From the NCBI RefSeq assembly GCF_003334385.1, contig NZ_QOWN01000053.1: a stretch of 31,720 bases of DNA, one strand, 5' to 3'. The notes beneath the pieces are model-generated. The model was given only the letters and a program-made list of their open reading frames with translations. It had not been told where the DNA came from and did not search any database. The translations under genes were made by a program, and so were the position numbers. The DNA comes from Escherichia coli (GTDB lineage Bacteria > Pseudomonadota > Gammaproteobacteria > Enterobacterales > Enterobacteriaceae). Of this stretch, positions 13,366 to 13,481 are shown piece after piece. Position 1 is the stretch's first letter. The number at the start of each line of letters is the position of its first letter.

Positions 13366-13481
13366 TTGACAATGAGAACTGTTTTCATTTAGAAATGATT
13401 GATGTCGAAAGCATCCTTTCGTTAGATTCTCCATTGGGATTACCTCCGCCAGTCTCCATTCCTGTTGCTGGCGGTTTTTTT
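13366..13481 (+). ncRNA. Candidate small RNA unit: promoter-like element, internal hairpin, intrinsic terminator
   Basis: Perfect TTGACA -35 at 13366-13371, TAGAAA -10 about 18 bp downstream, CGAAAG-catc-CTTTCG hairpin at about 13410-13425, then CCGCCAG...CTGGCGG stem with T7 run at 13446-13481. Confidence 0.3.

Follow-up and report, generated by a model that had tools for sequence, protein, structure and literature searches.

Our analysis suggests that the 140-bp intergenic gap at positions 13348-13487 of the window, the whole 31,720-nt stretch of Escherichia coli DNA analyzed here, probably holds an expressed gene for a trans-acting small RNA (sRNA) that would be read from the plus strand, opposite to a late operon encoded on the minus strand. 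The unit is an unannotated relative of Esr41, a known kind of prophage sRNA gene of the "moron" type of lambdoid prophages. Alignment identifies it as a diverged homologue of esr41 that appears to be organized as a self-contained module from promoter to terminator. Its most likely function would be that of an Hfq-dependent trans-acting repressor of about 81 nt made in lysogens, whereby we infer the transcription of the unit, the binding of its RNA by Hfq, and the regulatory outcome. A sequence-only reading of this DNA had proposed an independent plus-strand unit of about 80 nt with its own promoter and terminator, and both the homology with Esr41 and the genomic slot shared with the prophage sRNAs PasA and PasC, described below, argue for that proposal.

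Layout of the unit within the late operon

As the sequence-only reading had it, both neighbors of the unit, a nanS-p-type esterase gene and a gene of the DUF1378 family, lie on the minus strand, and the unit runs opposite to the late genes (Table 1). The esterase stop codon is 6 nt away from the predicted 3' end of the sRNA, and the start codon of the DUF1378 gene is 19 nt away from the -35 hexamer; beyond the DUF1378 gene, on the side away from the esterase, follow the holin, lysozyme, and Rz genes of the late operon. The stretch around the unit matches Escherichia phage PhiR5_2 with 100% identity, and no stx gene was present in the 14 kb of this phage that were inspected. A plus-strand open reading frame at 13341-13742 (133 aa) was rejected as a gene, being antisense to the esterase and without support.

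Table 1. Positions of the predicted elements of the unit and of its two neighboring genes in the window
Feature	Position	Strand	Basis
-35 hexamer TTGACA	13366-13371	+	Sequence; 115/115 related IMG/VR loci; aligns with TTGACA of esr41
Weak -10: TTAGAA (17-nt spacer) or TAGAAA (18-nt spacer)	13389-13395	+	Sequence
Predicted 81-nt sRNA	13401..13481	+	Esr41 alignment; covariance model R1, 98 bits
5' hairpin CGAAAG-CAUC-CUUUCG, perfect 6-bp stem	13406-13421	+	Sequence, folding
Candidate seed GAUUCUCCAUUGGG, anti-Shine-Dalgarno type	13425-13438	+	UUCUCCAU kept in Esr41 and P13374 variant
Terminator hairpin CCGCCAG(U)...(G)CUGGCGG, 7-8-bp G+C-rich stem, 13-15-nt loop	13446-13474	+	Sequence, folding
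U7 tail (T7), predicted RNA 3' end, likely Hfq-binding site	13475-13481	+	Sequence; conservation drop beyond
SASA-family sialate O-acetylesterase (nanS-p type), 667 codons	13488..15491	-	ORF list; RefSeq on identical DNA
DUF1378 family protein, late gene	13153..13347	-	ORF list; RefSeq annotation

The perfect TTGACA announced as the -35 element is indeed present. The accompanying -10, which had been called plausible, stands as an A/T-rich element, but on sequence alone that word is generous: the element is a poor match to the consensus, at best four of six positions with the final T missing, and because of the missing T the consensus promoter scan yielded no promoter between 12000 and 15000. 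The bases aligned with it are TTATAT/TATATA in esr41 and TTAAAA/TAAAAA in the variants of Stx phages. Since about 15 TTGACA hexamers are expected by chance on both strands of 31.7 kb, the evidence that a single sequence offers for a promoter is weak. Comparison raises the unit above chance, through the TTGACA retained at every related locus and through the fall in conservation that follows the U run.

The 5' end of the RNA is placed by homology. In Esr41, the first base of TTGACA precedes it by 35 nt, and the same spacing in the window therefore gives a start at G13401 and a length of 81 nt. The internal perfect hairpin noted earlier was found with its 6-bp stem; a simple 5' hairpin is also predicted by folding in Esr41 and in the Sp5 copy, with a different sequence in each, whereas for the copy of phage P13374 a longer and irregular 5' structure is predicted in its place. 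The register of this hairpin is not conserved, and it is absent from the RNAalifold consensus of 18 variants. The plus-strand terminator is present as had been described, with a folding energy of -13.4 kcal/mol that none of 200 shuffled sequences reached, and its 7-bp stem is invariant across the 18 variants. With a stem of 7 to 8 bp followed by U7, the unit carries what is generally looked for in Hfq-dependent trans-acting sRNAs, that is, a Rho-independent terminator hairpin followed by at least six U residues. The consensus scan of 12000-15000 did not call this terminator because the loop exceeds the maximum of 8 nt that the scan allows. RNAalifold applied to the same 18 variants of the close family returned invariant stems with no compensatory covariation, so the structure is unsupported by covariation at that depth.

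The loop of the terminator is unusually long, with 13 to 15 nt (13453-13467, plus strand). Most variants keep its core UCCAUUCCUG, while P13374 and Esr41 have different loops, and the loop could be a second pairing site.

Further RNA elements were noted in the window. On the strand of the late operon, a strong terminator-like site at 12799-12827 (-), with a 12-bp stem followed by TTTTATTT, follows closely on the stop of a minus-strand open reading frame that ends at 12837 and precedes the holin gene (approximately 12545-12760); passage of late transcription through this site would require Q antitermination. Matches to the C4 antisense RNA (66 bits; 20009-20093, -) and to isrK (69 bits; 20119-20196, -), both above the Rfam gathering score, adjoin each other on the same strand and resemble the IsrK/antQ-type module of Gifsy-1 and the c4 immunity RNA of P1/P7.

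Homology with Esr41 and occurrence in phages and genomes

Esr41 (EcOnc14; Rfam RF02676) is an Hfq-dependent, Hfq-binding sRNA of about 70 to 74 nt encoded on the island SpLE1 of O157:H7 Sakai (PMC5286369, PMC9387321). Its targets chuA, cirA, and bfr are repressed through base pairing with the ribosome-binding sites, as reported with compensatory mutations (PMC5286369; summarized in PMC8065619). We retrieved the genuine gene from SpLE1 and aligned it with the window unit. The local alignment of the whole genes, which extends from TTGACA through the U tract, has a score of 55, compared with 15.4 +/- 2.4 for dinucleotide shuffles (z = 16), and in blastn a 55-nt stretch of the window matches Esr41 at 80% identity (E = 6e-7). 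A covariance model (R1), built from 18 variants of the phage locus with Esr41 left out, finds Esr41 in SpLE1 with 25.8 bits (E = 1.5e-4) and the divergent copy of the O104:H4 phage P13374 with E = 6e-7. With a relaxed threshold, the Rfam model of Esr41 yields a weak full-length match at 13406-13482 (+) with 16.6 bits (E = 1.6), far below its gathering score of 102 bits, while genuine Esr41 scores 108.6; at the gathering score, Rfam gives no match at the locus of the unit. This model accepts little besides near-identical sequences, which is why the unit is unannotated: among the matches listed by BLAST in complete E. coli genomes, no feature is annotated under it.

The homology between the window and SpLE1 ends at the gene borders, and the SpLE1 flanks are unrelated. 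Within these borders, the two genes have in common the TTGACA 35 nt before the 5' end, the A/T-rich -10, a 5' hairpin beginning with GAUG and followed by UUCUCCAU, the elements CCUCCGCC.G...GCUGGCG and UGUUGCUGGCG, and the U7 run. The RNAs are also of similar size (81 nt predicted in the window, 74 nt for Esr41). The genes differ in the sequence of the 5' hairpin, in the terminator loop, which is larger in the window, and in the middle GGGG/CCCU hairpin of Esr41, which is cut to 2 bp in the window. Their locations differ as well, the window copy lying in a lambdoid late region between esterase and DUF1378 genes and Esr41 in the neighborhood of ter and iha on SpLE1 (O-island 43/48).

In IMG/VR, a search pattern that did not include TTGACA matched at least 120 loci. 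Of 122 loci that were examined, 116 have the unit antisense between the esterase and DUF1378 genes, the other six reaching the end of their contig; taken separately, the esterase is antisense to it in 118 loci and DUF1378 in 120. The esterase alleles at the unit-bearing loci share 56 to 100% protein identity with that of the window. TTGACA occurs in all 115 related loci. Across the promoter and the RNA, mean column conservation is 0.87 to 1.00; the six bases that directly follow the U run show a fall from 0.97 to 0.65, and the esterase gene has values of 0.71 to 0.76. On the 5' side, equally high conservation continues into the DUF1378 gene, and therefore the 3' boundary alone is informative.

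BLAST located the unit in 305 phage records, most of which belong to Stx1- and Stx2-converting phages. Among 5426 complete E. coli genomes, 951 have it, the median number of places in a genome being 2 and the highest 7. Approximately one in six complete genomes thus carries it, and the phages concerned include those of Stx1, Stx2, and O104:H4. The exact variant of the window (at least 99% identity) is present in 18 genomes. A gapped-pattern scan of genome contigs gave, among the matches listed, only chance ones in unrelated and mostly G+C-rich genomes, which carried no information on taxonomic spread, and a full-text search of the searchable literature did not find the sequence of the unit.

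Two of the copies deserve description. In the P13374 subtype, from the phage of O104:H4 (1527-1643, plus strand of the fetched locus), the -35 is TTGACT and the segment from seed to terminator is different. In Sp5, the Stx2 prophage of O157 Sakai (6087-6169, minus strand of the fetched locus; NC_002695.2 1272086-1272168, minus strand), the unit adjoins an esterase gene disrupted by IS629. The Hfq-CRAC study of Tree et al. (PMC4104026) lists about 60 orphan EcOnc sites, none of which falls in the gap between esterase and DUF1378 genes of Sp5 or Sp15; the missing Sp5 peak may reflect low expression or the loss of multi-copy reads.

Candidate target, proposed mechanism, and alternative readings

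The putative seed GAUUCUCCAUUGGG is an invariant stretch of the unit. The Esr41 seed tested for in the window was UUUUCUCCAUGGGG, with UUCUCCAU kept, and the latter is also found in the divergent P13374 type, which was retrieved by BLAST independently of the search pattern. In the minimum-energy fold, the seed is partly inside a weak hairpin. We tested a 22-nt segment centered on UUCUCCAU for pairing with translation-start regions from -40 to +20, with shuffled targets as controls; unrestricted duplex folding of the whole sRNA against 150-nt targets was dropped, since it produced unrealistically long duplexes. Pairing with chuA reaches -21.3 kcal/mol for the window (positions -19 to -3), -20.2 kcal/mol for Esr41 (-18 to -5), and -20.3 kcal/mol for the P13374 type (-16 to -2), and in each case none of 300 shuffled targets was as good. 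Complementarity of the window RNA to the chuA ribosome-binding site is thus equal to or better than that of Esr41, and the P13374 seed UGAUUCUCCAUGA makes 13 contiguous pairs with the same site. Pairing of the window with the two other Esr41 targets is no better than with shuffled sequences: cirA gives -14.2 kcal/mol (positions -18 to -6; 49 of 300 shuffles as good) and bfr -9.7 kcal/mol (positions -40 to -5; 178 of 300), the predicted cirA pairing of Esr41 being lost in the window RNA. The mRNA of the heme receptor gene chuA would accordingly be the best candidate target among those compared by sequence. Because a seed of the anti-Shine-Dalgarno type is generic, however, the prediction of targets is uncertain, and that chuA is in fact regulated by the window RNA is a possibility to which we give somewhat less than even weight.

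According to the mechanism we propose, host sigma-70 RNA polymerase would start transcription at about G13401 in a lysogen, while the late operon is silent, and termination at the U7 tract would yield the 81-nt RNA. Hfq would be bound by the terminator hairpin together with the U tail, and GAUUCUCCAUUGGG would pair with the Shine-Dalgarno and start regions of host mRNAs, whose translation would thereby be blocked. During lytic growth, Q-modified transcription would run head-on through the sRNA gene and produce a late mRNA fully complementary to the sRNA, and both should then shut off or titrate the sRNA.

The choice of strand has to be weighed against folding. The 81-nt plus-strand RNA folds with -20.1 kcal/mol, only marginally better than shuffled sequences (z = -1.8), while its reverse complement folds with -26.7 kcal/mol (z = -4.8), so that thermodynamics alone would favor the minus strand. 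These energies, the weak -10, and the lack of a reported Hfq peak at the Sp5 copy would suit a structured element of the late mRNA, for instance one that stabilizes the esterase message at its 3' end or a processing site, with no functional plus-strand RNA and with TTGACA and the T run being incidental. We consider this highly improbable, given that the same module, with its TTGACA equally spaced, is the source of a verified RNA from the equivalent of the plus strand in SpLE1, where no late operon lies opposite, that TTGACA is retained in 115 of 115 loci, and that conservation stops exactly at the U run. Furthermore, U.G pairs on the plus strand correspond to C.A mismatches on the minus strand, as is the case for the eighth pair of the terminator. 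The hairpin was also rejected as the terminator of the esterase gene, since on the minus strand it is followed by AGGUAAUCCC and not by a U run, which bears out the earlier remark that it is not simply the nanS-p terminator. U run and promoter are found exclusively on the plus strand, and the predicted strand assignment rests on these two elements, on the U.G pair in place of C.A, and on the known strand of Esr41.

Even if a plus-strand RNA is made, it might act mainly in cis, by pairing with the late transcript between the esterase stop and the DUF1378 gene, so that cleavage by RNase III or head-on interference would tune nanS-p or the lysis genes. The RNA converges with the late mRNA and matches it perfectly in antisense, this position is kept in 116 of 122 loci, and the complementary minus-strand RNA is the strongly structured one (z = -4.8). 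The homologue Esr41, however, acts in trans from SpLE1, within unrelated flanks and without a late operon opposite (PMC5286369), and PasA and PasC, which occupy the same slot as the window unit, have many trans partners in RIL-seq (PMC8550237). In addition, the window RNA starts 54 nt from the DUF1378 start codon, short of its ribosome-binding site, and overlaps the esterase message in the 3' untranslated region alone. We therefore regard a mainly cis-acting RNA as unlikely, and an effect in cis on late-gene or nanS-p expression as less likely than a trans-acting role. A role as a sponge, in which a core sRNA would be titrated through the 5' region or the terminator loop with no direct repression of mRNAs, as for AsxR and AgvB, draws on the existence of such sponges in prophage late regions, convergent with the late operon (PMC4104026), and on the large conserved loop UCCAUUCCUG. 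Yet AgvB and AsxR measure 51 to 60 nt and lie upstream of the esterase, no Rfam match to either was obtained in the window at gathering scores or in 15400-16600 at E <= 1, and Esr41, as the closest homologue, is a direct repressor of mRNAs at their ribosome-binding sites (PMC5286369; PMC8065619); we deem this role very remote. The trans-acting repressor of the Esr41 type is the reading we retain.

The slot between esterase and lysis genes and its known sRNAs

PasA and PasC (EcOnc51/52) are prophage sRNAs of EPEC E2348/69 and EHEC, found by RIL-seq, verified by northern blotting, and dependent on Hfq for their stability (PMC8550237, Table S6). They sit between the sialate esterase and holin genes (10.64898/2026.05.13.724894), and at both E2348/69 loci we confirmed this arrangement and the orientation antisense to the esterase. 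The window unit occupies the same slot, between a SASA esterase gene and lysis genes and convergent with the esterase; PasA and PasC are close to it in size (79 to 85 nt compared with 81 nt) and have the terminator core GCCAG...CUGGC and U7 in common with it. Their bodies, by contrast, are not detectably homologous to it, the alignments (z = 2 to 5) being confined to the last 16 nt, that is, the terminator. Model R1 finds neither PasA nor PasC, both are without UUCUCCAU, and nucleotide similarity to PasA/PasC over at least 75% of the length, as used by Zhu et al., was not found for the window. The seed of PasA has been placed at GCCAGCACCU in the 5' arm of the terminator, where the window has GCCAGUCUCC, with GCCAG alone in common, and the TTGACA of the PasA promoter is within a 26-nt segment that is missing from the window.

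Downstream of PasA, at approximately 2460-2575 (-) of the fetched locus from prophage PP2 of E2348/69, we observed another unit in tandem, with a TTGACA of its own and a terminator resembling that of PasC (GCCAGCG...CGCTGGC followed by U7). The 236-nt "minor" PasA species (PMC8550237, Table S6) would be consistent with read-through into this unit.

The other side of the esterase gene also carries RNA elements. PasD is located just upstream of the esterase, and for this reason published hits placed relative to PasD probably correspond to the window-type element; their authors do not say so. According to Zhu et al., PasD/EcOnc13, which occupies this spot, is related to STnc100. In the window, two strong STnc100 copies (130 to 139 bits) immediately precede the esterase gene as a tandem, at 15693-15902 (-) and 16178-16371 (-), and a third match in the same tandem, at 15967-16142 (-), is weak and subthreshold (29.6 bits). 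The position of this tandem is that of stx in Stx phages.

We tentatively put forward, as a reading that is conceivable but that we do not hold to be the more probable one, that the place between esterase and lysis genes is an exchangeable sRNA slot with at least three types, namely PasA/PasC, Esr41-like, and P13374. The Esr41-like type may be that of the window and of most Stx phages, and the Esr41 of SpLE1 would be a copy that moved as a promoter-to-terminator module. If this holds and the seed shared by the Esr41-like types acts on chuA, many Stx and related prophages would dampen heme uptake in lysogens, and prophages reported to have "lost" PasA/PasC would carry an Esr41-like sRNA instead. 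If the unit is expressed, control of heme and iron uptake of the Esr41 type, known from a single O157 island, would extend to a large number of prophages, and an sRNA slot that was read as empty in most Stx phages by a survey (10.64898/2026.05.13.724894) would be filled. For annotation, the results make a case for a broader covariance model of the Esr41 family. The unit is not categorically new, and its value lies in its prevalence, in the link between Esr41 and the late-region slot, and in the prediction of chuA control.

Short prophage sRNAs that have their own promoter, are encoded in the late "moron" region, and converge with late transcription have been described in AsxR and AgvB (RF02703/RF02702; PMC4104026). 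These RNAs of 51 to 60 nt, which sponge core sRNAs, are encoded upstream of the esterase gene and 3' of stx or Q, whereas the window unit lies downstream of the esterase.
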